Virus record (IMG/VR): IMGVR_UViG_3300027863_000020
Location: 64,001 to 128,000 of that record
Reading direction: 5' to 3' (one strand)
Length of the DNA: 64,000 nt
Origin: a virus
The translations under genes and the position numbers were made by a program. Positions 2-29,897 of the stretch are shown here, one piece after another. Each line of letters starts with the position of its first letter. Position 1 is the stretch's first letter. Below the pieces are notes generated by a model. The model was not told where the DNA came from. It saw only the letters and a program-made list of their open reading frames with translations, and searched no databases.

Positions 2-1354
2 TTGAAATCGTTGGTGATCGAAGACTTTATCAAAGAGCCGTTGGTTTTCCCCATTGGGTACGAGGGGATTAGTCGGTCTGAAGTTCTGTACGAGCTTCCG
101 CTATTCCGAAAAGAACGAGTTTCCCCGTATCACAGATATGAGTTCGTGGTTGTCAATGAGAAGGTTCTAATCGACAACGACACACGATTGCCCGATTTCA
201 ACTGGTTCCGTGATTGTGACATCCATTTCACAGGAACTACTCCAATGTTCATTCCATATAGGTTCGTCAATTGCGCCCTATATGGCAAACATTCGGACAA
301 GAATATCAAGCCATTCTCATCTTCTCTCTATTTCCATTTGCAGACTGTTATTGGTGGTGGTAGTCGAGCCGATGGTGCGTTTCTGAAGAACTGTACCGTG
401 AACGACATTCGTTTCAAGATGACCAATTTTGAAGGCTCTGCTTATACCGTACCCATCGAAGGCGGTGCTCTCAACAAATGTACTTTCGAGGTGACTACAA
501 AGAACATCGGTACAGGAACCGTCACTACGAAGCAAGTTGGTCATGCAATTGCTCTCAAGAATGTATCTATTTCCAAAACTGAATTTGGCTCGATTGATGT
601 CTTTGCCGAAAATTGCGAAGGTATCATTTCCGCAACCAGACCTACCAAATTACAGGGTGTTGGTAATTCGGTCATCGTCAATAACACGAATGGAACGAAT
701 CCCCCTAGCGTTTTCGTTGGGGATGAATGTACTTCGTTGCAAGTTGTCAATTTGACTAAATCGGAAATGAATGTGATGTTCCAGAACAGGGACTATGCGA
801 AAGACCGATTCGCTATGTTTACCAACCTGTATGTCAATGGAAACATTCGTCTTTCCGCACAAATGACTACATTCGCAACCACGATGCGGGAACAGTTCGA
901 TAGGAGTGGACACAAACAATCCAATGCCCAAATCGTAGTCAATACTTCAAACACCGCTCCCGACACTATGGGGAACCACGATTGGCGACTCACCGAAGAA
1001 TACATGGGCGATTTCTTCAAAGCGAAGGAATCCTTTTCGGATAAAACACAACTGCATATTCCAGACAATTTGCTTGGAACCTTTGTCTTTTCATCGAAGC
1101 GGATAACCGTCAATGGGGACAATCTGCTTGGTCTAATCATCACCACATTGAGCAATATAAATGACCATAGCGAAATCAAGCTGAAGGACGATGTGCTCAA
1201 TCAGGTTATCCTATTGCTTCACAATGGGATGAAAAACGAAGTTCCCAAGGATATGGACTTTGGGACTGAAGAGGGGAAGCCGATTATCGAAAAGATCGTA
1301 CTTCGTGCTTTCAGATTGTACAAGATTTGTCACCTTGCAAAGAGGGTTCTGTAA
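2..1354 (+). CDS. beta-helix-like paralog family protein (5' truncated by window)
   Basis: Open from window edge; periodic F-x-N/D-C-x-I/F strands; C-terminal block LHIPDNLLGTF..ITVNGD shared with next gene. Confidence 0.7.
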   Translation: MKSLVIEDFIKEPLVFPIGYEGISRSEVLYELPLFRKERVSPYHRYEFVVVNEKVLIDNDTRLPDFNWFRDCDIHFTGTTPMFIPYRFVNCALYGKHSDKNIKPFSSSLYFHLQTVIGGGSRADGAFLKNCTVNDIRFKMTNFEGSAYTVPIEGGALNKCTFEVTTKNIGTGTVTTKQVGHAIALKNVSISKTEFGSIDVFAENCEGIISATRPTKLQGVGNSVIVNNTNGTNPPSVFVGDECTSLQVVNLTKSEMNVMFQNRDYAKDRFAMFTNLYVNGNIRLSAQMTTFATTMREQFDRSGHKQSNAQIVVNTSNTAPDTMGNHDWRLTEEYMGDFFKAKESFSDKTQLHIPDNLLGTFVFSSKRITVNGDNLLGLIITTLSNINDHSEIKLKDDVLNQVILLLHNGMKNEVPKDMDFGTEEGKPIIEKIVLRAFRLYKICHLAKRVL

Positions 1355-2883
1355 TGTCCTACTTCATTCGTATGTTTCCGTCACAGGATTCCAGTCGTAG
1401 TTCGTATGATTATTCTTTGGATGATTACAACAAGATTCTGGAATTCTCGAAGTACGACCAGACCCCCTACACTGGTAAGGATGCGGGTGGTCTTTTGAGT
1501 TTCCCATTCGATTCGCATGACAAATTCTTGCGGGATGTCGCCCATACATTCCCATCCCCGCAATTGACATTGAGCACCTATAAGGGAAAGGACGATCTCC
1601 GATTTGTTTTTTGGGACAATGCTTTCTTTATCGGTGCAAATCTTGTCGTTGAGAACGAAACGGTTTACATATCGAAGGACTGCGAACTGACCAATTCGAT
1701 CCTACTCAAGAACTGCAATGTGGTTCTGGTAGGTGGTGGTGTGATTGACCATCGGATATTCTTTGACGGATGCAAAATCCGTGGTGCGGTCAAGAAGGAT
1801 GGATACCCTACATTCACGGGTACATTGGGAATACCTATCCATGCTATGCCAAACTTCAGCACCGATGGCGGGAAATCGAATGTCCTTTTGCAGAGTTCGG
1901 TATTCATCAATTGCGAGATAACAGGTGTATCCATTGGTAGTGAATTTGATTCATACACCAATCCCGTTTTCAAATTGAAGGGATGCAAACTGGTCAAGTG
2001 TGACTTTGGATATATTGGACGAAAGAAGCATGACCATATGCGTGGGATCATTGCGGAAGATTGCTCTTTTGATAAAACGGTGATTGATGGTGTGAAGATG
2101 ATTTCGGATAATTGTGATGGAACAATCGAAATCCGTCATACCAAGCAAACTTCTCCATATCCTGTTCTCATGGTGGTCGGTAAGACCCCGAAGGTTGTCA
2201 TCGGAAAGGAAACCATGACATCGGTTCGTGTTGTGAATGCGACCGATTCGATAATTCCCTTATACATCGAAGCCCCTGAAGTGGCTTCATCCGTTCTTCG
2301 TGGAATTGCCCTCAATGGAAAGTTCGACATCGACATTGATGAAAAGAGTCGGTTCACCGTAGCACACACCAATAAATCGACTGTTTTGTGTACCATCGTA
2401 GGTCTTGCCAATAGTACCGCTCTCGAAATGGGCATCAAGAACAATAGCATCCTTTGGAACAAGTCGATTGCCCAAGTACATTCCGAATTCGACAAACGGA
2501 CAACGACCACGATAGCGGACATCACGATTCCGTCCGAGAAATTGGGTCTATTCGGTGGTTATTCCAATCCGACCGTGACCGTCAATGGAGACCCCGTTCT
2601 CATGTTCGTGACCCAGATCATCGGAGTATTGACCGTTGATGGGAAGGCCAAGACCGATTTGAAGGCAAAGGAATTGATTATCAAGTCGGTCATGGGTACG
2701 CTCAAATCTCTTGGGTATGCGGATCGAAACCATCTCCCAGAGATTCTTGATACCATCTATTCCAAGACATCGAAGATTCTCCGTCTCATGGGATTGACCG
2801 ACAGGCAACGGCTCCATTATATGAAGGAAAACAAGACCCTTCAGAAGTGGTGGTCTCACAATACCGAAAACTCTGAAAAATGA
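1354..2883 (+). CDS. beta-helix-like paralog family protein
   Basis: TAATG-coupled start; LKNCNV/FDGCKI/FINCEI/LKGCKL repeats; ITIPSEKLGLF..VTVNGD block matches upstream gene. Confidence 0.75.
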   Translation: MSYFIRMFPSQDSSRSSYDYSLDDYNKILEFSKYDQTPYTGKDAGGLLSFPFDSHDKFLRDVAHTFPSPQLTLSTYKGKDDLRFVFWDNAFFIGANLVVENETVYISKDCELTNSILLKNCNVVLVGGGVIDHRIFFDGCKIRGAVKKDGYPTFTGTLGIPIHAMPNFSTDGGKSNVLLQSSVFINCEITGVSIGSEFDSYTNPVFKLKGCKLVKCDFGYIGRKKHDHMRGIIAEDCSFDKTVIDGVKMISDNCDGTIEIRHTKQTSPYPVLMVVGKTPKVVIGKETMTSVRVVNATDSIIPLYIEAPEVASSVLRGIALNGKFDIDIDEKSRFTVAHTNKSTVLCTIVGLANSTALEMGIKNNSILWNKSIAQVHSEFDKRTTTTIADITIPSEKLGLFGGYSNPTVTVNGDPVLMFVTQIIGVLTVDGKAKTDLKAKELIIKSVMGTLKSLGYADRNHLPEILDTIYSKTSKILRLMGLTDRQRLHYMKENKTLQKWWSHNTENSEK

Positions 2884-2886
2884 TAC

Positions 2887-2941
2887 TTGACAAGATACAT
2901 TTGGCGAAGTAGATTATGTGATGTCGGGGCTATTCCCGACA
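2887..2941 (+). promoter_or_regulatory. sigma70-type promoter with ACAAGATAC box and 5' stem-loop
   Basis: TTGACA-17-TAGATT, then hairpin TGTCGGG-gctatt-CCCGACA. Confidence 0.65.
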
Positions 2942-2954
2942 ATTACACGATAGG

Positions 2955-3722
2955 TTGAATATGAATATCTTGAGTATCTTCAGTTCGGGATTCCCCGAAA
3001 AAGCAGACAAACGCCTCTTGAAGAACCTTTCCATCCGTGGAAAGGAACTTGGCACGAAACCAATCCAGTCTTGCGACATCATCGGGTGCGACTTCCGTGG
3101 TGCTTCTGCTTCCAATAAGTCGTTCACCAAATCCCATTTCCACAACTGCGACTTCCGTGGAGCCGATTTCATCAATTGTACATTCGGTGCGGTGAGCTTC
3201 GACAATTCCGACCTTCGGGGTGTCAATCTGTCTGGTTCCCTTCCAGTGGGATCGACTTGGCGGTATTCTTGGGCAAACGCTTCGGTGTTCGTTGGATGCG
3301 AGTTCACCAAGTCGGTCTTTTGCGGTGTCAATTTCCAAGGCTCCGATCTTCGTATGGCGAAATTGATTGACTGTCAATTTGCCCGTGAGAACATCACCCC
3401 CGATCTTCCCGTCACTTCGTTCGCCACTGCGAAACTGGACAATGCAAACTTCTCCAACACCAAAGCACCTATGGTCGATTTCCGTCACTGTACAGCACGG
3501 GATACCAATTTCTCGAACTGCGACCTCCGTGGTTCCGACTTCCGTGGTTCCCGCCTCATGGGTGCGTCTTTCCATAATGCGAATGTGGAAGGGTGTGATT
3601 TCCGTGGTGCGTTCCTTCATGGATGCGACTTTTCTGGTGTCAATCTGGATTCCTTCCGTTGGAATTCCGAATACTATGTGGAACGGGATGGTGTTATCCT
3701 CTCCAAGAAGGAGATGCGCTAA
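2955..3722 (+). CDS. pentapeptide repeat protein
   Basis: Many tandem A/C-D/N-F/L-R/S-G repeats (CDFRG, ADFIN, SDLRG, ANFSN). Confidence 0.92.
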   Translation: MNMNILSIFSSGFPEKADKRLLKNLSIRGKELGTKPIQSCDIIGCDFRGASASNKSFTKSHFHNCDFRGADFINCTFGAVSFDNSDLRGVNLSGSLPVGSTWRYSWANASVFVGCEFTKSVFCGVNFQGSDLRMAKLIDCQFARENITPDLPVTSFATAKLDNANFSNTKAPMVDFRHCTARDTNFSNCDLRGSDFRGSRLMGASFHNANVEGCDFRGAFLHGCDFSGVNLDSFRWNSEYYVERDGVILSKKEMR

Positions 3723-4504
3723 TGTTGAACCTCACAAAACACAGCATTGTCATGTCCACCCTGTTTTCCAGAATTCGTCCGATTTCCAAGGAAGAAATCC
3801 ACCTGATTCTGGACAAGGACGAATTCTCCAAAACCCATCTTCCACAGGTTGCCGAAGCGATCAAAGACGATGAAGACATCCCAGAGCGAATTCGGGAAAT
3901 GCTTGTCGATGCGCTTCCGAAGTATCTCAATGAAGCAAAAGACCCGAAGGTCGATCCAGTCGAAATTGACCAACTGGTTCCCATTTGCAAGAAGTGGGCG
4001 GGAAGGCACATTGGAAAAGATTTCTCCGATAGCATGGATGACTGCATGGAAGGGATTGATACATTGATTGAATGGCTCAAGTCCCGTGGATTCGAGCCTG
4101 TCAATGTTCGTTGCGACAATCCAGAGTGTCATGCGATCCATGCCATGATTCCATGCCAGATTCCGACCGATTGGGCGAACCATCCGAATGAACTCTCCGT
4201 CATCGACAAAGATGCGTTCTCCAAGGATGGATATAGCCTTGCGCTCATCGACTTGGAAGACTTGCTCTCCGTGGTATCTGGTCAATTGCGGATTTTCCTT
4301 GGGTTCTACTACGAAATGTGCAAGAGCTTCCCACAATACAAGATCGACCCCGATTCGGTCGAGTTCGGTGGTCTCCGTGTCCAGAGGGATGGGGAAGACA
4401 TGGGGCTATTGGTCGATACCAACATTCTTGCCGTCAAAGAATGGATCAATCTGCAACGGGTTCTTCATTACCGAAATGGGGATGGAGTATGGACAAAGCG
4501 TTGA
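3722..4504 (+). CDS. hypothetical protein
   Basis: TAATG-coupled 260-aa ORF. Confidence 0.7.
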   Translation: MLNLTKHSIVMSTLFSRIRPISKEEIHLILDKDEFSKTHLPQVAEAIKDDEDIPERIREMLVDALPKYLNEAKDPKVDPVEIDQLVPICKKWAGRHIGKDFSDSMDDCMEGIDTLIEWLKSRGFEPVNVRCDNPECHAIHAMIPCQIPTDWANHPNELSVIDKDAFSKDGYSLALIDLEDLLSVVSGQLRIFLGFYYEMCKSFPQYKIDPDSVEFGGLRVQRDGEDMGLLVDTNILAVKEWINLQRVLHYRNGDGVWTKR

Positions 4505-4764
4505 TTGTATCCTATGTCGTTGAAGCGACTCTCGAAGGAATACCGTGCGAGGTGTCCCTTCTTGACAAGGATGGGAACGAGGTCGGTTTTTGGGCGTATG
4601 GAGCCTTTACCGACTCTTCCGTTCTATGCCCGTGCTCCGACAATATACGCCCTTCGTTACATCCTGAAGGGCATTCCAGAGACGAAGCGAGTATAGCCCA
4701 ACTCATAACTAAAAATCTTCAATCGGGATTCAATAGAGTCCCGATTTTTCATTATCATAAATAA
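4489..4764 (+). CDS. hypothetical protein
   Basis: GGAG RBS, overlaps upstream stop. Confidence 0.55.
   Translation: MDKALIVSYVVEATLEGIPCEVSLLDKDGNEVGFWAYGAFTDSSVLCPCSDNIRPSLHPEGHSRDEASIAQLITKNLQSGFNRVPIFHYHK
4758..4763 (+). promoter_or_regulatory. T4-like late promoter core TAAATA
   Basis: CATAAATA 5 nt before ATG; same motif precedes structural genes elsewhere. Confidence 0.6.
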
Positions 4765-4768
4765 TGAT

Positions 4769-6589
4769 ATGAAACGAACTCTTCTCATTTTTGGCTACTC
4801 CCCGTCTGGTATGTTCAAGGCAGTCCGTGAGTATTTGAAGGATCAAAATGGTTGGTCTGGTGGTGACAAATACGATGGACTCAAGTACAACAACTTGACC
4901 TATGCGTTCTCCAAAGAAATCGAGGTCAATGACCAGAACACCGTTGCTATTGCGGAACAGGCCAAGATCAGCGAATGGGGTATGTATGTCGCAATTCTCA
5001 ATGAAGATGAGACACAGTGGCGACTTCTGGAATCGTCCGAATGGAAGCCTATTTCCAAATTGACGATCAATAACGCAAACAAGATTGCGAAGGAATCGGC
5101 ACGGACATCGGTTTCGTCAATCGAGTCGGACATCATGGCGGTTGCGTTTCTACGACAGAGGTATTTCACAAATACCGTCCGTGGACGGAATGGTATTCGT
5201 GACGATGCCAAGCCATACCGTGATTATCGTGGTAAGAAGGGATGGAGCGATAAGCCCCAAGAAGAAATGACTTATCGCAAATTGACACCAGACGAATCGG
5301 TCGGATTCGGTGTCGATGAAATGTTCCCGAAGAATACCTATGAGAAGATAATCGAGGAAGTTGGTAGTGGTACTCACAAGAATCGGTCGTATGCCGAAGA
5401 TGCCATCAATATCCTATTTCTGGTCAATACGAAGACTGGAAAGATGATCTGCATTCGGAAGAACCATTCTAGCTCTTATGATATTGTGGAGTCCAAGGAC
5501 ACCGCTGAATCAGTATCGTTGAAAGATGTTCGTGTCAATTTGACTGAATATGTTGTCGATGAAGTAATCACAGCAGGGTCTCAAATCATTTCCAGAGTCT
5601 TCAATCTTCCAGTTCCATTATTCGGATACTCCGATTTGCGATTTGTGAATTGCGAAGTGTTCACAAGACTAGGTGATGCCAACTTGGTCAATGTCTATTT
5701 CGATTCGTGTAAGTTCGATGTGAATAAAATCCAGTTATTCGGAACCTGTCACTTCGATAATTGCAAACTTGAGCTAGGGAAAGTCGGTTCCATAACGACA
5801 CACGGGAATCTATCATTCGATAAGTGCCTTGTCGATATAACGGCTCTCCATATCTACCTTTCCGAAAATGCCGATTTTGAAGCGAACAATTGCCAATTCA
5901 ATCGGGCGACAATCATTGCCTATTGTGAAAAGGAATTACCCGCCAAGTTCACCAATTGCAGATTTGAAAACAACTATACGATCAATTTGAGCGACAAAGC
6001 ATACTTCATGTTTACCAAGTGCCATTTGAACCCTATGGCGGTTCCTTTCAATTTTGGTCAATCGAAGGCTCAATATCCGTGCGTTCTGATTGACAGCTTC
6101 GTTGTCCATTATATCAGTGGAAAGCCCGTGCGGGTCATTGGCGATGCGAAGGGAAGCACTTATCTACTGAAGGGTCTCGATACCGATGCCGATTTCTCAC
6201 AGGCTAGGAACGCAAGCATTCGAGCACTCAATTGTACGCTTGGCGGTATCTTCATTCCACCACAGGATGCGGTGATAATCGAGGAAGTCGAGAAGTTCCT
6301 TCCATTCAAAGACAGTGAAGAAGACAAGCAACGACACATCTTCTTTTCTGGATTGAACAAATACGAAGTCACTACCTTCATGGGAACTACTATCCGAAGG
6401 GATGACAACGACAAGCCAGAGACATGGGATTGGACTGGATGGTGGGCATCATTCATTGACAAGGTGGCGAGTCCGATTGACTTGAGTTTCATAACTCCAC
6501 CGAAAGATTATGCCACCATAAAGAAGTATGCTCTGCGTTGGTTCAAGTTCCGTAAGTTGTTCAAGAACGGACACCAGAGGGTTGTATAA
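4769..6589 (+). CDS. beta-helix-like paralog family protein with extended N-terminus
   Basis: RFVNCEV/YFDSCKF/HFDNCKL/SFDKCLV/KFTNCRF repeats; basic C-terminal helix. Confidence 0.75.
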   Translation: MKRTLLIFGYSPSGMFKAVREYLKDQNGWSGGDKYDGLKYNNLTYAFSKEIEVNDQNTVAIAEQAKISEWGMYVAILNEDETQWRLLESSEWKPISKLTINNANKIAKESARTSVSSIESDIMAVAFLRQRYFTNTVRGRNGIRDDAKPYRDYRGKKGWSDKPQEEMTYRKLTPDESVGFGVDEMFPKNTYEKIIEEVGSGTHKNRSYAEDAINILFLVNTKTGKMICIRKNHSSSYDIVESKDTAESVSLKDVRVNLTEYVVDEVITAGSQIISRVFNLPVPLFGYSDLRFVNCEVFTRLGDANLVNVYFDSCKFDVNKIQLFGTCHFDNCKLELGKVGSITTHGNLSFDKCLVDITALHIYLSENADFEANNCQFNRATIIAYCEKELPAKFTNCRFENNYTINLSDKAYFMFTKCHLNPMAVPFNFGQSKAQYPCVLIDSFVVHYISGKPVRVIGDAKGSTYLLKGLDTDADFSQARNASIRALNCTLGGIFIPPQDAVIIEEVEKFLPFKDSEEDKQRHIFFSGLNKYEVTTFMGTTIRRDDNDKPETWDWTGWWASFIDKVASPIDLSFITPPKDYATIKKYALRWFKFRKLFKNGHQRVV

Positions 6590-6678
6590 TGTTGGAATTA
6601 GCCATGCTCTCAATCTTGATGCTACTAGCCCATCACAACTTCATAGTGCTTGGGCGAAAGCGATTCCGTGATAGATGA
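6589..6678 (+). CDS. small hydrophobic peptide (29 aa)
   Basis: TAATG-coupled; MLELAMLSILMLLAHHNFIVLGRKRFRDR fills the intergenic gap. Confidence 0.45.
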   Translation: MLELAMLSILMLLAHHNFIVLGRKRFRDR

Positions 6679-6693
6679 TGAATCATGGGTTCC

Positions 6694-6699
6694 TAAATA
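6694..6699 (+). promoter_or_regulatory. T4-like late promoter core TAAATA
   Basis: CCTAAATA followed by GAGG RBS and ATG 6714. Confidence 0.6.
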
Positions 6700-6713
6700 C
6701 ATTTGAGGAACCT

Positions 6714-8258
6714 ATGAAATACGATAACGACAAGAACATCCATTCGGAAGATGATTTGGCGAAGGCTTATTCCCTAGCACAAACCGAAGGTGTTTCTTCA
6801 ATTGCGGTCGGGATAGTCGAGAACCCGATGGTCATGGAAGTTGTCCGTGGCCTTTCCGCATTCAAGGGCAAGTATTCTCCAAAGAAGAATTCCGTTGGTA
6901 TCGAGATCATCGAGAATGACGGGTATTCCATCGTGTCGCTAATCAATTCAAAGGGATTGGCGATGCACGAAGAAGTCATCAAAGAATTCGTACAAATCTT
7001 TTCATTCAGAAAAGGCAATGCGTTGTGTTTTGTCGAGCAACCGATTCTGAATTTAGCGACAACTTCTGGACTAGATGGCGTTTACCTAGTCAATCAGAAA
7101 ATGGATCACAAGGTAATGGATTCCATGCGAAGGCTTTTGTTCTACAAATGTCAATTCGATTTATCCGTTAAAGGATTGGGGGCTTCAAAAGCACAAGCAA
7201 AACAGAATAGGGTAAGCGAACCGATCCAACTACTTGACAATTGCAAGCTCATCGAATGTTCCGTTGTCAATTCGAGACCGACTGATTCGTTGCAAAGGTA
7301 CGCATTGGTTCGGGTTGTTGGTTGCGATCTAGTCAATACCGACTTCGTGGGCATAGCAGTGGGGTTGTTCGACCGCAACACATTGGAACGGTGCTATTTC
7401 ACCCGATGCTATGTATTCGGTGCAGAAGACCCCAATCAACCGAAGCTCAATTTCAAATTCGAGCAGAAGTTCTCCAAGTGCAAATTTGGATTTGATAATC
7501 TAATCGCACCAACTCAAAACATATTCGACCTAGATGATTGCGAAACCTTCCACAAGCCAGTATTGAACGAGATTGGGAAAATCCGTCCGTTTGCCGAAGT
7601 GACCAGTTCCTTCGGGTTCGATGGATCACATCTTCCTAATCAAATGGTGTTCCGTGGATCGACTATGCCTATGGTGTCGCAAGACCTTTCCATGAGCGAT
7701 CATGTGTATATGTATTTCACCCTAGTCGGAAACCGAATCAATCCAACACTGGATACGAGGGCATTCATCGGAGTCGGTATTGCCAATACCAAGATGATGG
7801 TCGAACGAAAGGGTGGAACCGATCCAGTCGTATTGACTCTTTCTGGAAAGACCACTATTCCCGATTTCGATGCCCGTGAAAATGACCCAGAACTCTATAC
7901 TCCATCCGATCCGTCAATTCCGTTTCTTGAAATGAAGGGCGTTGATGTATTGGCGGTTCCTACTGGATACGACAGAGACCCCGTACTGGAAAATGGTATT
8001 GGTGTCTTCTTGGAGAAAGTTCGTGGAATCCATACCATCATCGACTTCAAGGACAGCAGAACATCGGTGTTCTATGTCTATTATCCGTTGATGCAAGCGA
8101 TCATCAAAACAAGTGGACGCAAGGTTGTCGAAAAGACTCTCAAGAAGGTGTGTGATGAAATTGAGAGAAAGCCGTCAATCGGTGAGTATCTGAAGAACGA
8201 GCCACCCGAAATAACCCGTCTTCGTAAAATGTTTGAACTTCTATCAAGAGGTCTTTAA
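6714..8258 (+). CDS. beta-helix-like paralog family protein
   Basis: LFYKCQF/LDNCKL/VVGCDL/LERCYF/FSKCKF repeats; ~514 aa. Confidence 0.75.
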   Translation: MKYDNDKNIHSEDDLAKAYSLAQTEGVSSIAVGIVENPMVMEVVRGLSAFKGKYSPKKNSVGIEIIENDGYSIVSLINSKGLAMHEEVIKEFVQIFSFRKGNALCFVEQPILNLATTSGLDGVYLVNQKMDHKVMDSMRRLLFYKCQFDLSVKGLGASKAQAKQNRVSEPIQLLDNCKLIECSVVNSRPTDSLQRYALVRVVGCDLVNTDFVGIAVGLFDRNTLERCYFTRCYVFGAEDPNQPKLNFKFEQKFSKCKFGFDNLIAPTQNIFDLDDCETFHKPVLNEIGKIRPFAEVTSSFGFDGSHLPNQMVFRGSTMPMVSQDLSMSDHVYMYFTLVGNRINPTLDTRAFIGVGIANTKMMVERKGGTDPVVLTLSGKTTIPDFDARENDPELYTPSDPSIPFLEMKGVDVLAVPTGYDRDPVLENGIGVFLEKVRGIHTIIDFKDSRTSVFYVYYPLMQAIIKTSGRKVVEKTLKKVCDEIERKPSIGEYLKNEPPEITRLRKMFELLSRGL

Positions 8259-9784
8259 TGCCCATTTTTGTAGAAATCGCTACCAAGTCCCAAGCAGGGC
8301 AAGGCGTTGTCAAGGAAGCCCTTATCGTTGGGTTGAGTTCCAATGTCACATTTACCGCACCGTCATCTCTTCGTTTCTTCAGAGTGACTTGTACTATGTC
8401 TGATGTGTATGCGGAGAAGGGAATCGTTGAAATCTTCAATGCGATTTCTACTCCCAAAGCATCAAAGTCGATACAAATGATCGAAGTTAGGACGGTAGAT
8501 ACCGCATTCAAATGGCCTTTTACTACCAATGTTCCATTTTTACATAGTAGCGCATTTTATTTCCAAGATTGTCTTGTCGAATTTGGAAGGAAGCCCGTAT
8601 TACCCGCAAAAGTGGTAATACAGGGAAGGAAGAGCGGTATTGTAGCGGACTTTACTGGTGTTGATGATTTGGGTGTCATGGAATTCCGAAATATGGGGAA
8701 TTTCGATATAACGACCAATCCACAGGTCAATGCCAAAATGATGTTCTCGAATTGTGACATTGGCACTGGACTGAAATGCGGCAAGTACGATGTGAATTAT
8801 GTTCTTCCAAAGAAGATCGGTGGAAATTACATTGAAATCCGCACGGATTCGTCAATTGGAAAACATGGCGAAGAATTATATGTCGGTGGAGCATTGCAAT
8901 TCGCAACCTAAGGATGTAAGGTTTTCGGTAAAGTCTATCCTCTATTTGGATTTATTGGTTATATGCCAAAAGGCGATGGAACCATCTATACGGGTGTTCG
9001 CAACCATGAAAAAATTGGTGGTTTTAGAAACCACAATATCTACTTGGGAGCCAATACGCATTTTTCCGAAATGGCAACATTGGGAATTCCACACTCCGAT
9101 AAGTTGAAAAGTGCCATTCATGCGAAGAACCGACAGCCATTGAATCAGAACTTCAACGACCAAACGCCCGTATTGTCTTTCATTGACGAGCGAAAAGAGA
9201 AGGATCGTGTTTTCCTCAAGATTGACGCTCAATCGGATTTCATATTCGATACGAAAGACCCTATTTCGTCACTACTCCATACCGAAATCGAACTTACCGT
9301 CATGGGTGCGAGACAGGGAATCGTTGATTATTTGCTCATTCATGGAAACGATCTTCCAAATCCACGGACTAATACAGCAAAGCCACAACTCATTATGTCT
9401 GGTGATGACCTCATTCCGAACTATACTGGAAGAGCGTACAAGTCCTACATGGATATGATGGATGAGCACTACAAAGCCCAATTCTCGACAGTCGATCCAC
9501 AGAACATCGAAAACCTGTTCAAGATGAATTCCGACATTATCTGTACCTACATGGACGGGACTACAAGCGAATACCTGTATTACAGAACCAAGTTGCTCAA
9601 TATCATTCTCAAGCCCAATATCCCGAACATCCCGTGGTGGAAACGACATTCGTTGTGGAAGAACCTCAACGAAATTACCAAGTCCATATTTGACACAAAG
9701 CGGGAAAGCATCCATATTGTAGAACAGAACACGGTCAAGTACGACCGTATCGTCCATTTCTTGAGGCTTTGTGGAATCAAATGA
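8258..9784 (+). pseudogene. beta-helix-like paralog interrupted by one in-frame TAA (8909-8911)
   Basis: ORFs 8258-8911 and 8963-9784 are in one frame, joined by 17 sense codons; fused length ~508 aa matches siblings. Confidence 0.7.
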
Positions 9785-11133
9785 GCTACCTTGGAACGCT
9801 AATATCCGATGAATTGAAGAGCCTTGGTTGGGATCGACTCATGCCACAGGAAGGGAATGTCCAGACCACGGACATCCGAAAGTGGACTTGCCATGCCATG
9901 AGCAAAGCGATCTGGAAATTCGCATACGAGCGATATACCCTCAATCTCATTGCGAATGGATCGTTCGTCAATAACTCCAATTATCAGGCAACCCAAGCGT
10001 CCGTTCCGTACCAACAGCCGACCGTTGGAATCTCATTGACGGGTTGGCTTCGGATTCCGTCCCACAAGAAGCTCTATGACATCCTTCTCCCTTGGATGAG
10101 GCAAAGCGATAATCCCCCCGATGTCTGGATTGATACTTTTCAACGAATCTTCATCGACTGGTTCGGTGTTCTCGAAGTACAAGCGGGACAGGATGGACAG
10201 ACCCCGCTCCCGATCATTCCATCCCCGACTTTCAATCCATCCCCTCCGTATTTCCACTCAATCAATGGATCGACCTTGGATTCCAACAAGTTCATTCCCC
10301 CGATTGAGAACCCCCCTCCGTCCGCTTACCCCGTCCCCTGTTCCAGTAGCCCCTCTGGTGGTATGTCCGTCCCTCCGATTGACACGGGCATTCAGGATGC
10401 AAAGGATTCCGAATCGAGCCGTTGGGACTCCCTACGGGCGACAGCGGTGTCATTCGAGGCCACCGCATTGACCAATTGGACGAATGCTTCAGGAACGACC
10501 GATCCTACCCAATTGGAAGCCCTGCGACAGCCATACCGTGACCGTTGGCAAGTCAGTCTGGAAGCCCTGCGAACCGAACAGGGCGAATTGAGAGGGGAGT
10601 CATCCCCAAATACCACAAGATTGACCGAAATTGACGGGCAGATTCAGTCAATCCACGACAATGCGCTCTCCTATGTGGATACCGACTACCCATCGGCAAC
10701 CGCCCGTATCGAGATGATCGACTATGAGAAGGGCTTGGCGACCTCTGGAAGCTCCGTTCCACCCGTTGTCCCTCCCATACCCCTACCCGTGGGAGAAACG
10801 AACCCAGATGCCCCCGAAATCGGGAATGCGAACCTATTGGAACCGAATGCCCCCGACTACGAATGGCCTCCAATCGTGGCATGGTACTCCACCCCTCCAA
10901 AAATCACATTCCCGACTTGTGCATCACACGGACAGGCTTGCTACGATGAGCTATCGTCATCGAACCCCGCCTCAATGGAAGAAGCATGGGACATCATCGG
11001 AAAGCACTTGGCAAACGCATTCAATGACCATTTGAAGGCGGTTGGTGGTGGTTCTGGATACGCCTATGGATTGCCCGTCAATCCGTGGAATGGATCAATC
11101 CTGATTGTTTCGTGTGTTTGGGACGATGCCTAA
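9781..11133 (+). CDS. hypothetical protein with Pro-rich linkers
   Basis: 450-aa ORF; two Pro-rich segments flank a helical region. Confidence 0.75.
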   Translation: MSYLGTLISDELKSLGWDRLMPQEGNVQTTDIRKWTCHAMSKAIWKFAYERYTLNLIANGSFVNNSNYQATQASVPYQQPTVGISLTGWLRIPSHKKLYDILLPWMRQSDNPPDVWIDTFQRIFIDWFGVLEVQAGQDGQTPLPIIPSPTFNPSPPYFHSINGSTLDSNKFIPPIENPPPSAYPVPCSSSPSGGMSVPPIDTGIQDAKDSESSRWDSLRATAVSFEATALTNWTNASGTTDPTQLEALRQPYRDRWQVSLEALRTEQGELRGESSPNTTRLTEIDGQIQSIHDNALSYVDTDYPSATARIEMIDYEKGLATSGSSVPPVVPPIPLPVGETNPDAPEIGNANLLEPNAPDYEWPPIVAWYSTPPKITFPTCASHGQACYDELSSSNPASMEEAWDIIGKHLANAFNDHLKAVGGGSGYAYGLPVNPWNGSILIVSCVWDDA

Positions 11134-11142
11134 AATAATACC

Positions 11143-11171
11143 TTGACTATACAAGATACATAGTGTATATT
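11143..11171 (+). promoter_or_regulatory. class-1 (early) promoter
   Basis: TTGACT-atacaagatacatagtg-TATATT; ATG 6 nt after -10 (leaderless-like). Confidence 0.85.
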
Positions 11172-11177
11172 CAAGGT

Positions 11178-11432
11178 ATGATGACAATACACGAAACATT
11201 GAAGGTTATCAGGGAAAAGGCAGAAGCCCTCAAAGCCCCCTACAATGGTTGCGTTCTTTCCGTGAAATTGGGCGAAACCGTCCACAAGGTAGAAGCTCAC
11301 AAACAGCACTGGTTGGTGGAAGGTTCGTATCCGAACTATTCGGTTGGTCTGTATGTGTTTGCCGATCACGCCAAACTCTATATCTCTCAATACTCTTGGG
11401 AATCGTTGGTGGTCGGGGTCGAATTCAAATGA
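11178..11432 (+). CDS. hypothetical protein
   Basis: Directly follows class-1 promoter; overlaps next start. Confidence 0.65.
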   Translation: MMTIHETLKVIREKAEALKAPYNGCVLSVKLGETVHKVEAHKQHWLVEGSYPNYSVGLYVFADHAKLYISQYSWESLVVGVEFK

Positions 11433-12985
11433 TTGCGTTCTCATATTCCAAGAACGACATCCTATCCGAAGAAGCGAAAGAAGCCTTCTTTGGAAAAAGA
11501 CCTATGGGTGAAATCGAAGTCGGGATAATCGTCAATCAATTGGATAATAAGAGCGTGGCGACAAATTTCATGCAATACATCCAATCCAAGGGGTTCGACA
11601 AATTTACGATTGAGAACAAGAATCTCATCGTTATGAATACCAAGTCGAAACAGGTCAAAGCATCCGACATTGACCGAATGGCCTATTGCATATCTCTCGA
11701 CAAAAATCTCATGTACTTCAAGGACATCACCATTTTTGCGGGTACTGGATTGGGTAATTCCGATCCACCATCGTCTAACAATTGGAAGATAGAGAATTGC
11801 GAAATCAATATGAATGGCTCGACAATGAAGTTCACCAATTCGGTGATAACCATTGTCAATTGCACAATCAATGGAATGAGCCAGTGTATTTCATCCGATA
11901 GTGCTTATATGGAGTTCATCAAATGCCGTTTCGCCAAACGAAACATAAGCGATGGAGAATTCACTTCTTTCATAGCGGGTAATACATCATCTATCCACAC
12001 TCCGACAAATCACATGGCATCTTCCATTGATTTGAAGCAGTGTGATTTGACCTCTGTTAATCTGAAATTTGAGAATACCCGTCAATCCGCAAGCCTATCG
12101 GTAATTGATTGTGATATGACATCGTGGGGATTTTCAAAGATCAAGCCAAAGACAATACTCATCATTGGAACCTCACCAGTCCAATTCCGTGACTGCAAGT
12201 TTCCAAAGCTCCATGTATTCCCGCACAACAAGGACAAGAGCACCGAAGCACGGAACATAGTCGCATTATACCAGAATGGATATATCGAATATCCTCTGTA
12301 TAAAGGAATCATGGATCACACAACGGTTCGTCTAGTACCCGTTGGTATGAATGCGATTGCGGTGATTCCAGACAATATCATAGTTTCGGAAGATGGTGAT
12401 TTCATCATGGCTTCGATATATGAGAACAATTGCTACCTAATCGGAACCGACATCAAGATAGGTCATTCCGATACCGCATATGATGGCGACCACCCACCCA
12501 AGTACACTCCAACATCATTCAAGTTTCAGCATTGCCATGTCGATTGCTCCCAAGCGATGACATTCACTCATTACTTTGGAGTGACCAGTACCGTATCAAT
12601 CGGGGATCATGGTATCTTGTGCCTTGATGACATCAACGATACTTCGGGGACTAATATCGTTTCGGACAACTCGTTGTATGCTTTGCTTGCCGATGGTAGG
12701 TTGAGACTGAAAGGAACTCTCTGGTCGAAGATTGACAGGGTAATAAGAACTCCGTCAATCACCATTCGCCCAATAAGAAGGAAGCCGATGTTTTCCGACA
12801 GGTATGGATGGCTCTATTTCGTACTGGACGGAAAGAAGGGTACTTTGTCGAAAGCCCTTGGTGTTGCCGACAAGGTTGCATCCGAACTTCCGATTGAGAA
12901 GTGGGGAACCTATGCGGACAGGATCACAAATCAGCTTCAGTTTTTTGTGGATAACGAGAAGATGCTTATGAAATTGAGCAAATAA
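11429..12985 (+). CDS. beta-helix-like paralog family protein
   Basis: KIENCEI/IVNCTI/FIKCRF/LKQCDL/VIDCDM/FRDCKF repeats; 518 aa. Confidence 0.75.
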   Translation: MIAFSYSKNDILSEEAKEAFFGKRPMGEIEVGIIVNQLDNKSVATNFMQYIQSKGFDKFTIENKNLIVMNTKSKQVKASDIDRMAYCISLDKNLMYFKDITIFAGTGLGNSDPPSSNNWKIENCEINMNGSTMKFTNSVITIVNCTINGMSQCISSDSAYMEFIKCRFAKRNISDGEFTSFIAGNTSSIHTPTNHMASSIDLKQCDLTSVNLKFENTRQSASLSVIDCDMTSWGFSKIKPKTILIIGTSPVQFRDCKFPKLHVFPHNKDKSTEARNIVALYQNGYIEYPLYKGIMDHTTVRLVPVGMNAIAVIPDNIIVSEDGDFIMASIYENNCYLIGTDIKIGHSDTAYDGDHPPKYTPTSFKFQHCHVDCSQAMTFTHYFGVTSTVSIGDHGILCLDDINDTSGTNIVSDNSLYALLADGRLRLKGTLWSKIDRVIRTPSITIRPIRRKPMFSDRYGWLYFVLDGKKGTLSKALGVADKVASELPIEKWGTYADRITNQLQFFVDNEKMLMKLSK

Positions 12986-13014
12986 TTGACAGGTTTTTGA
13001 ATACCATCCATATT
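12986..13014 (+). promoter_or_regulatory. class-2 promoter TTGACA-N17-CATATT
   Basis: Exact 17-nt spacer; one of five copies. Confidence 0.7.
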
Positions 13015-28416: not shown

Positions 28417-29307
28417 TCATGCTTTGGATAGGTCTAGGACTGGTGGATTTTTGGATGGTTTGGTTTTTACCAACTTCGTGAACTTCGCAAGACGCTTGAA
28501 TGCCTCTTCATTGTTCACCGTCAATCCGATTTCCTTGGCGGTTTCATTGTTCAAGAAGTCGGTGAAGTTGGTCAGGTCTGATTGACCGAATACTACGATG
28601 AGGGGGTATTTGTCGGAAAGACCAGTGATGGTCAATGATGCTCCCCCTGCGTTGTTGATCCCAATACAGGCTTCGGCCTTGATTTCGGAATTGAACGCAA
28701 CCACCACCGATTTGCTTCCTTCAAAAAGGGTTGCGAAATTCGGGAAGGTATCACGGTAATTTTCGGAATAAGTCAGGAATACGCTGTCTGCCTTGATGCG
28801 ACCGCCTTCTGCGAATGAAAATGCGGTATCCATGCCAACGAAGTTCTTTACCCGTATTCCCGCCTTGATTGATGTGAGTCTGTGGGAGACAACGGTTCCA
28901 TTCCAATCAAGGCCATCTAGCATACACCCGAATAGGGAAATGCGCCCATTGATGCTACCACCGATGAAATGGGCGTTTGCGAACACCATGTCCTTTTCAT
29001 ACTGGTTGTTCTTCAGTATCAATCGGGAATAGAGACTGGTGTTTCCCACCGAAGTAGTCGTGCTTTCCATGTTGAGGGCATCGGCATACGAATGGATCGA
29101 ATGTGATGCGGTCTGCGATAACTTCCCGTCCTTAATTTCACCAATGAATGCGCCATTCTTCTTGTAAACATTGGTGACACCATTTCCGCTTACTCCATCA
29201 AGCCCTTTCCAGAGTTCCACCCATTTGGCATCGGGATAGAAATACTTGACAACGGTATTCTTGGTCGTACCTGTCTTTTCGTAGTATCGCTTCAAAACGC
29301 TAATCAT
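28417..29307 (-). CDS. shorter beta-helix-like protein, possible outlier paralog
   Basis: VFANAHF/LFGCML strands; C-terminal KRLAKFTKL helix. Confidence 0.5.
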   Translation of the reverse strand: MISVLKRYYEKTGTTKNTVVKYFYPDAKWVELWKGLDGVSGNGVTNVYKKNGAFIGEIKDGKLSQTASHSIHSYADALNMESTTTSVGNTSLYSRLILKNNQYEKDMVFANAHFIGGSINGRISLFGCMLDGLDWNGTVVSHRLTSIKAGIRVKNFVGMDTAFSFAEGGRIKADSVFLTYSENYRDTFPNFATLFEGSKSVVVAFNSEIKAEACIGINNAGGASLTITGLSDKYPLIVVFGQSDLTNFTDFLNNETAKEIGLTVNNEEAFKRLAKFTKLVKTKPSKNPPVLDLSKA

Positions 29308-29897
29308 ATCGCATCCACCTCTGTTCGAGCACCTTCCCATTCGCTAGGATGTGCTTTGTCATCGCTCGATTGACCATCATTGACACCGATGTAGTCGAAC
29401 TCCAAATCTTGTGCGGTCAATGAAATGGTGAAGTCGAGTTCTTCGGAAGTACCCGATACCATCGTCAAGGAAGAGATTGAAGTAAGACATACATCCAACA
29501 ATCGGATTCGGAGTCGTTCCCGCTTCTGCGTATCAAGCAACCAAGCGGTGCAATGCGTGATGAAGTTCATGTACGGAGCGGGAACACCGTTCCGATTCTC
29601 CACGCTTCCACGCCTTAATTGATACCACCATTTCATAAACCACCAATAGTTCTCGAATCCTTCGGAGACCTTCATGGTGATCGTGAATGGAAACAATCCC
29701 TGATTTCGGTTGGGATTCATGTTCATCATTTCTCTTCCCGCAAAGAACGAACTGATATTGTCCACGGTCATATCGGGAAGAGTGAAGGTTGTGATGTACT
29801 GATCGAACAATCGAAGATCGACCTTCTCACCTTCTGCACTAGGCATATCACCAATGGCAAAACGCCATTTGTCCGCTTTGGCTACATTCGGTATCAT
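29304..29897 (-). CDS. tail tube-fold protein (T4 gp19/gp54/gp3-like)
   Basis: FTLPDMTV..FTITMKVSEGFENYWWFMKW..CLTSISSL pattern; position after hub. Confidence 0.65.
   Translation of the reverse strand: MIPNVAKADKWRFAIGDMPSAEGEKVDLRLFDQYITTFTLPDMTVDNISSFFAGREMMNMNPNRNQGLFPFTITMKVSEGFENYWWFMKWWYQLRRGSVENRNGVPAPYMNFITHCTAWLLDTQKRERLRIRLLDVCLTSISSLTMVSGTSEELDFTISLTAQDLEFDYIGVNDGQSSDDKAHPSEWEGARTEVDAI

Follow-up and report, generated by a model that had tools for sequence, protein, structure and literature searches.

Ackermannviridae phages, ~150-kb myoviruses with T4-like core genes, carry multi-tailspike clusters (e.g., TSP1-4 of CBA120) in which late beta-helix genes stand in tandem (PMC8825819, PMC7506556). 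Diverged paralogue families are also found among packaged phage proteins, such as the internal proteins and Alt of T4 and the ejection proteins of SPN3US and phiKZ (PMC5694885, PMC9958956, PMC7697877). Here, we describe a tandem array of seven genes (Z and A to F) that lies in, and just upstream of, a 64,000-nucleotide stretch of viral DNA (hereafter, the window; bases 64001-128000 of the 150,817-bp IMG/VR record IMGVR_UViG_3300027863_000020, rated complete by CheckV). The array very probably represents a lineage-restricted, tandemly duplicated family of proteins of ~500 amino acids (aa) that includes Z, A, B, D, F, probably C, and possibly E. Its members would begin with a short N-terminal region that is unrelated from one to the next, continue as a right-handed parallel beta-helix with degenerate pentapeptide-like rungs (h-x-(N/D)-C-x-h; h, hydrophobic), and close with a helical domain whose last element is an amphipathic basic helix. 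We propose, with a probability of roughly 0.4, that the array proteins are particle-associated, tailspike-like specificity modules.

Seven tandem genes and their relationship

The seven genes are all encoded on the plus strand, and the array is interrupted by a pentapeptide-repeat gene (PRP) and by the X and P genes (Table 1). A preliminary description, based on the letters of the window, had listed six tandem genes. The open reading frames (ORFs) that it placed at 2, 1354, 4769, 6714, and 11429 were recovered, whereas the frame of the gene at 8258 (E) is interrupted, A extends beyond the start of the window, and Z lies outside it. The codon that splits E is TAA here and GAA in the relative L003, in which the orthologue is intact (505 aa), and the stop arose either by a nonsense mutation in recent time or through an error in the sequence. 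Start codons overlap the preceding stop codons at the Z/A, A/B, D/E, and E/P junctions, and the last of these (ATGA) is consistent with translational coupling of P to E. All peptides quoted in the preliminary description are present, including KRLAKFTKL, which sits in a minus-strand gene of the tail operon (28417..29340). This gene had been suggested as a possible seventh member, but it has a single rung motif and was not linked to any of the array proteins by profiles, and we do not retain it.

Homology is significant for Z, A, and B, and sequence profiles support D, F, and, weakly, C, whereas E is a candidate. A and B are linked by blastp (1e-8) and HHalign (96.6%), and their common block, IP..LG.F..TVNGD, is found as described earlier. 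Z is linked to B by phmmer (1e-5) and to both A and B by HHalign (69-74%, with profiles that include orthologues from relatives), and pairwise blastp and phmmer searches gave no link beyond these three proteins. Using a 12-sequence Z/A/B profile, a four-sequence profile of D aligned at equivalent positions over 124 columns (HHalign 91%, E 1.1e-6), and F was matched by HHalign (70%, E 3.9e-5) and hmmsearch (2.2e-5), in addition to a Smith-Waterman z of 8.3 between F and Z. C reached an hmmsearch E of 0.07, and its HHalign value of 43% comes solely from the last 26 columns. E never scored against array members in profile comparisons (HHalign, hmmsearch), and its sole likeness to the array is a C-terminal segment, DRIVHFLRLCGIK, that resembles DRIANFLRLGGVK of Z. 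The earlier view of one family of six therefore stands for A, B, D, and F, with Z added, but only weakly for C and without a significant link for E.

Given these values, it is improbable that only Z, A, and B are paralogous and that the remaining genes are unrelated solenoid or ORFan genes with convergent rung motifs in a hyperplastic region. The failure of blastp and phmmer outside Z/A/B, the isolation of E, the weak internal repeat periodicity, and an unusable model of D all favor such convergence, and profile scores can be inflated by solenoid repeats. When 225 proteins from this genome and its relatives were searched with the Z/A/B profile, however, the training set was followed by the PRP genes, F, three D orthologues, and two C orthologues, with ~190 unrelated proteins all ranking below the F, D, and C matches. 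The in-register alignment of D, the retention of protein size and gene order in the distant relative L007, and a C-terminal motif in common also argue for a single family.

This C-terminal pattern, (D/E)(R/K)I...(R/K)(F/L)x(R/K)(L/F)xG, is readable in all members and their relatives, whereas the N-termini are unlike one another across the array. A leave-out hidden Markov model (HMM) of the C-terminal helix gave E-values of 0.28-14, short of significance, with E and the L007 orthologue of C near the top and matched at their C-termini (0.28-0.6). A helix shared across the members is thus suggestive only. A clamp-binding tail, as in T4 gp43 and gp55, was also considered but not retained. The 878-aa protein that we take to be the polymerase of this phage has no similar C-terminal tail.

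Pentapeptide-like rungs and the predicted fold

The C-x-hydrophobic rung motif of the preliminary description is enriched far beyond chance. The seven array proteins contain 40 of the 109 genome-wide matches to h-x-x-C-x-h (8.5 expected, P=5e-15), and 60% of their Cys residues lie in this context, compared to 13% elsewhere (Fisher 1e-16). The spacing between rungs ranges from 19-31 residues, with frequent +5 pairs, which fits an irregular solenoid with pentapeptide-like rungs. In self-similarity scans, significant internal periodicity was confined to the PRP gene and, at a marginal level, C, pointing likewise to an irregular solenoid. The family profiles match the embedded PRP protein (hmmsearch 1e-5 to 4e-10; HHalign 87%) and a database pentapeptide-repeat protein (1.9e-4), although none of A-F matches PF00805 at E <= 0.1 and only the embedded 253-aa gene reaches the Pfam score.

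The kinship of the rungs with the embedded PRP favors a different function, which we consider somewhat unlikely: the array proteins may be host-targeting intracellular effectors (counter-defence or takeover) that are either made and active late or packaged and delivered with the DNA. In such effectors, a rod-like beta-solenoid would form the surface that binds variable host proteins, with the shared C-terminal helix acting as a docking or loading signal.

To describe the fold, B was modelled using AlphaFold2 (AF2) with 12 family sequences and compared to known structures using VIA (exhaustive alignment) and Foldseek. The model has a mean predicted local distance difference test score (pLDDT) of 60 and a predicted template modelling score of 0.59. 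Its strands (approximately residues 96-330) reach a pLDDT of 65-90 and its C-terminal helical bundle (414-504) a pLDDT of 64-87, whereas the N-terminus is unmodelled. The top VIA match is UpaB (6bea; Z 13.5, root-mean-square deviation 4.1 A, 250 residues), and 57 chains match at Z >= 8, of which the top 50 are all beta-helices. These matches include pertactin, VacA, polygalacturonases, alginate and pectate lyases, and depolymerases of Acinetobacter and Klebsiella phages. Tailspikes and polysaccharide lyases are found at Z 9-11 (e.g., Fri1 gp49 at 10.7-11.2 and CBA120 TSP2/3/4 at 9.7-10.1), and a beta-helix chain of the atadenovirus capsid (6qi5_S) is found at Z 9.2. Foldseek returned the same fold class, with every E-value > 0.02. 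The beta-helix claimed earlier is thus upheld for B, which is modelled as a right-handed parallel beta-helix with a pectin-lyase-like fold.

For the other members, structural evidence is limited to leads. The AF2 model of D, made from three sequences, is unusable (pLDDT 32), and little beyond strands in the middle and helices at the C-terminus can be made out in it. C matched Pfam Beta_helix at E 0.006, which did not pass the cut-off, and its Atlas model has a pLDDT of 0.51. Atlas feature matches (PcfJ, LRR_5, Recep_L, and E1B-55K) were all < 0.9 and are leads toward a solenoid only. Searches of PDB sequences with C, D, and F (phmmer) returned nothing meaningful, and the P profile had no match in PDB.

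Distribution and divergence among relatives

The array proteins are not a described family, as the preliminary description had suspected. Scans of A-F found no Pfam or PHROG family match at the thresholds used, and NCBIfam had no match for any member, including Z. When the Z/A/B profile was run exhaustively with HMMER against 1.84 billion cluster representatives, it recovered five true members (five clusters), all from this lineage, together with weak matches to repeat proteins, one pentapeptide protein included. No match was found by tblastn of B against 50,697 phage records, by megablast of the array region, or by a viral-contig scan with B. Scans of viral contigs with an amidase alignment returned one short contig and with a P alignment none; a metagenome scan with P returned one 3-kb contig. 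Word-based searches retrieved only near relatives for B and D and nothing for E. The family is therefore new and private to one uncultured T4-like lineage, whereas tandem, diversifying beta-helix genes of phages are already known.

Relatives of this lineage allowed us to compare the array between genomes. L003 (85% DNA identity) has an intact B-PRP-X-C-D-E block, and L004 and L005, from two Joint Genome Institute (JGI) samples, are ~90% identical. The distant L007 and L008 share the gene order amidase, three members, PRP, X, two members, P, and have neither E nor F. No F orthologue was seen in any relative recovered. At the position of F, both L007 (20030-20788) and L011 (2444-3094) contain a P-loop kinase gene (Zeta_toxin/AAA_33), and L011 repeats the order D-P-kinase. 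These kinase genes have a late box upstream.

Orthologues of the array proteins diverge far faster than their neighbors (A 55%, B 70%, C 84%, and E 81% identity vs 93-98% for PRP and 95-98% for X), and this divergence is concentrated in tracts. For example, identity to L007 is 72% across the N-terminal 40 aa of Z and ~40% beyond them, and identity to L003 is 95-100% in the N-terminal 200 aa of C and the C-terminal 200 aa of E, compared to 30-65% in the solenoid. All members have a ratio of non-synonymous to synonymous substitution rates (dN/dS) of 0.14-0.25, indicating purifying selection. Synonymous divergence (dS) is saturated in the divergent tracts (1.2-2.6; C 200-440, D 121-200, E 41-280, and the N-terminal third of A) and low in the flanks (0.05-0.25), which identifies the tracts as recombinational imports that cover mostly the beta-helix and leave the termini conserved.

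Not only segments but whole genes vary. L004 and L005 have lost most of C, as well as most of D plus E (L004:12447-12810 and L005:5745-6110; genome 68866-70430 and 70789-73596 are missing). The first deletion junction shows 13-15 nt of microhomology and leaves an in-frame mini-gene made of the two ends of C, and the second deletion is out of frame. C, D, and E are thus dispensable. The earlier description of an expanded, diversifying family agrees with these mosaic tracts and gene losses, but the process looks like recombination under purifying selection rather than point-mutational positive selection.

Genomic setting and expression signals

On the evidence of the late box and of the sheath, tube, and terminase genes, the source is classified as an uncultured T4-like myovirus; at 151 kb, its genome does not fit the jumbo phage label applied earlier. 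The sheath matches cultured phages at best partially (24-39%), implying a lineage without a cultured relative. The array is placed at the end of the terminase-sheath-tube late cluster, and the minus-strand half of the window encodes baseplate and fibre genes. The ORFan and double-ATPase genes between sheath and tube are oddly placed for a T4-like tail module, and the 1454-aa ATPase retains 44% identity in L007.

Table 1 Features of the array and its surroundings (window positions unless marked as genome positions)
Feature	Position	Strand	Remarks
Large terminase gene	upstream of window	+	988 aa
Tail sheath gene	upstream of window	+	661 aa; phrog_23 at 7e-33
ORFan gene and gene with two P-loop ATPase domains	genome 52317-59884	+	958 aa and 1454 aa; between tail sheath and tail tube genes
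gp19-like tail tube gene	upstream of window, after 1454-aa ATPase gene	+	187 aa
185-aa protein gene	upstream of window, after tail tube gene	+	
Amidase_2 protein gene	upstream of window, after 185-aa protein gene	+	341 aa
Z	genome 62221..63849, just upstream of window	+	542 aa; further paralogue
A	2..1354 (3' 450 codons in window)	+	502 aa in full; start 155 nt before window (genome 63846); Z/A/B clade
B	1354..2883	+	509 aa; unmodelled N-terminus, predicted right-handed parallel beta-helix (~65-420), C-terminal helical bundle (414-504)
Sigma-70-like promoter TTGACA-17-TAGATT	2887..2915	+	upstream of PRP; kept in L003 and L004
Pentapeptide-repeat gene (PRP)	2961..3722	+	253 aa, inside array; PF00805 1.4e-33; repeats resemble rungs of array proteins
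X	3722..4504	+	260 aa, acidic; not a family member; 95-98% in close relatives, 29% in L007
Terminator-like hairpin	4721..4746	+	11 bp stem, then T run; closes PRP-X unit
Late-promoter-like box CATAAATA	4756..4763 (TAAATA at 4758)	+	5 nt before ATG of C; kept before C orthologues in L003 and L007
C	4769..6589	+	606 aa; ~280-aa N-terminal region, Cys-rung solenoid (292-420) with 7 motifs, basic C-terminal helix
Late-promoter-like box CCTAAATA	6692..6699 (TAAATA at 6694)	+	20 nt before ATG of D
D	6714..8258	+	514 aa; solenoid in register with Z/A/B
E	8258..9784	+	split by in-frame TAA at 8909-8911 into 217 and 273 aa
P	9781..11133	+	450 aa, acidic (pI 4.6), Pro-rich; no family match; not a family member; 50-54% in L007 and L011
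Sigma-70-like promoter TTGACT-17-TATATT	11143..11171	+	ahead of 84-aa ORF and F
84-aa ORF	11178..11432	+	stop overlaps ATG of F (ATGA)
F	11429..12985	+	518 aa; family member on profile evidence
Strand-rich gene in tail operon	28417..29340	-	307 aa; KRLAKFTKL helix near C-terminus

The exact T4 late box (TATAAATA) does not occur in the window, and [C][A/T]TAAATA was used as the working late box. Of 52 TAAATA sites, 33 have a long ORF starting 8-60 nt downstream, compared to 10.3 +/- 2.9 for sites placed at random, and these ORFs include sheath, tube, amidase, Z, C, and D. The boxes noticed earlier before two members (C and D) are thus part of a stronger pattern: Z has one also, and all three are retained before the L007 orthologues despite 20-45% protein identity. 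The array would accordingly be transcribed from T4-type late promoters along with the virion genes. At eight of the 33 gene-proximal sites, TAAATA lies exactly 5 nt before the ATG, including those of C and the amidase (genome 61165, 44766, 98717, and others), which suggests leaderless late mRNAs. Both sigma-70-like promoters listed in Table 1 are close to consensus and carry the extended form TTGAC(A/T)..AGATACAT, and a third is located at 12986-13014, just past F. P, which ends in GGGSGYAYGL..NPW, may work with the array proteins as a structural partner.

A place beside the sheath and tube genes, late expression, dispensability in relatives, and the atadenovirus chain among the matches of B are features that late, non-essential structural accessories would also have, such as capsid or tail decoration, cement, or scaffold proteins without a role in specificity, comparable to LH3, the beta-helix capsid protein of atadenoviruses. 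We give this little credence, because it offers little reason for seven diverged paralogues or for recombination of the central domain between fixed ends.

Possible functions of the array proteins

Tailspike-like specificity modules are suggested by the fold, late expression, the place of the array behind the late cluster of terminase, sheath, and tube, conserved ends with a swappable middle, intragenic mosaicism, and gene presence/absence. From these features, we infer a virion location, an oligomeric state, and a ligand of the tailspike kind. The conserved ends would dock or assemble the protein on the virion, and the exchangeable face of the beta-helix would bind, and perhaps cut, a variable host-surface polymer. 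Members are under purifying selection, are individually dispensable, and evolve by swaps of beta-helix segments between phages. Paralogues standing side by side could widen or shift the host range, like the four tailspikes of Ackermannviridae phages.

Several results weigh against this proposal. No array protein matched PHROG or Pfam tailspike, pectate-lyase, Beta_helix, or tail families at threshold, and no trimerisation or anchor domain is recognisable, the N-terminus of B being unmodelled. For the C-terminal chaperone Peptidase_S74, Pfam gave no match in the members scanned, with the B bundle covered only as part of the whole protein. Pentapeptide-repeat proteins, to which the rungs bear a likeness, typically reside inside cells; Cys content is 1.4-2.4% in the array proteins vs 0-0.7% in the recognisable virion proteins of this phage; and PRP and F stand behind sigma-70-like promoters. 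In addition, the phage already has a large minus-strand tail and fibre module, and B, with its pLDDT of 60, is the single usable member model.

Part of this evidence would be expected of intracellular effectors. Apart from the rung kinship and the missing anchor or trimer signature, the Cys content is enzyme-like for this phage (three to six times that of its recognisable virion proteins), pI is neutral (6.4-8.7), and the N-termini have no obvious hydrophobic signal peptide as judged by eye. Accessory behavior with gene loss, the kinase at the position of F in L007 and L011 (the locus acts like an accessory island), and the mixture of promoter types before F, PRP, and the other genes also favor effectors, as does a short C-terminal motif common to otherwise unalignable members. 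A weak language-model and Foldseek likeness to adenovirus E1B-55K, an intracellular viral beta-helix, is a lead only. However, the late promoters before Z, C, and D are conserved, intragenic mosaicism is more usual in receptor-binding genes, the top structural neighbors are extracellular, and the C-terminal motif alone is not significant. No T4-style N-terminal capsid-targeting sequence was seen in common among the members: their N-termini are unlike one another, and short h-x-E triplets, though present, are expected by chance. DNA mimicry is unlikely, given that the proteins are not acidic.

A variant of packaged delivery has a small chance of being correct, namely that the family is a rod-shaped beta-solenoid cargo that is loaded into the head or tail lumen, with the C-terminal helix as loading tag, and injected with the DNA. 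Cargo loading is ATPase-dependent in extracellular contractile injection systems, and by analogy the 1454-aa double P-loop ATPase might be the loader of that cargo. If so, the swappable beta-helix would supply a repertoire of host-protein binders that enters the cell as soon as infection begins.

Either outcome provides a concrete target for expression and binding studies. As tailspike-like receptor binders, the array proteins would add a new architecture to the known tailspikes and amount to a system of host-range cassettes in a phage group without a cultured member; as delivered or intracellular effectors, they would represent a new class of phage counter-host proteins.

Comparison with known systems

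Compared to packaged phage proteins, the array is similarly late, tandem, linked by profiles only, dispensable, and variable between relatives. Packaged proteins, however, carry a targeting sequence or propeptide at the N-terminus as well as protease sites, and they have no beta-helix; no N-terminal tag common to the array proteins was seen. Autotransporter passengers (UpaB, pertactin, and Ag43) share the beta-helix and provide the best structural match of B, but the array proteins are phage-encoded and have neither a signal peptide nor a beta-barrel translocator, so that the resemblance is one of fold only.

Pentapeptide-repeat proteins of PF00805 (Qnr/MfpA, PipB2, and the SopA N-domain) are similar in the rung motif, which, with its frequent +5 spacing, corresponds to two consecutive pentapeptides. 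The array differs from them in its irregular coil spacing (19-31) and its extra N- and C-terminal domains, and the B model fits three-faced pectin-lyase-like helices better than the quadrilateral helices of PF00805.

As in the Ackermannviridae tailspike clusters, paralogues stand side by side and the beta-helix part is exchanged between phages, and TSP2/3/4 of CBA120 are among the structural matches of B. The array proteins differ in showing no sequence similarity to those tailspikes and in lacking recognisable N-terminal assembly or anchor domains. They are also smaller (~500 aa), with Cys-bearing pentapeptide-like rungs and a conserved C-terminal helical bundle. The family thus joins Cys rungs of the pentapeptide-like kind to a helical C-terminal domain that is private to it, and it follows a modular pattern of evolution in which the ends are fixed, the middle recombines, and whole genes are lost via microhomology.

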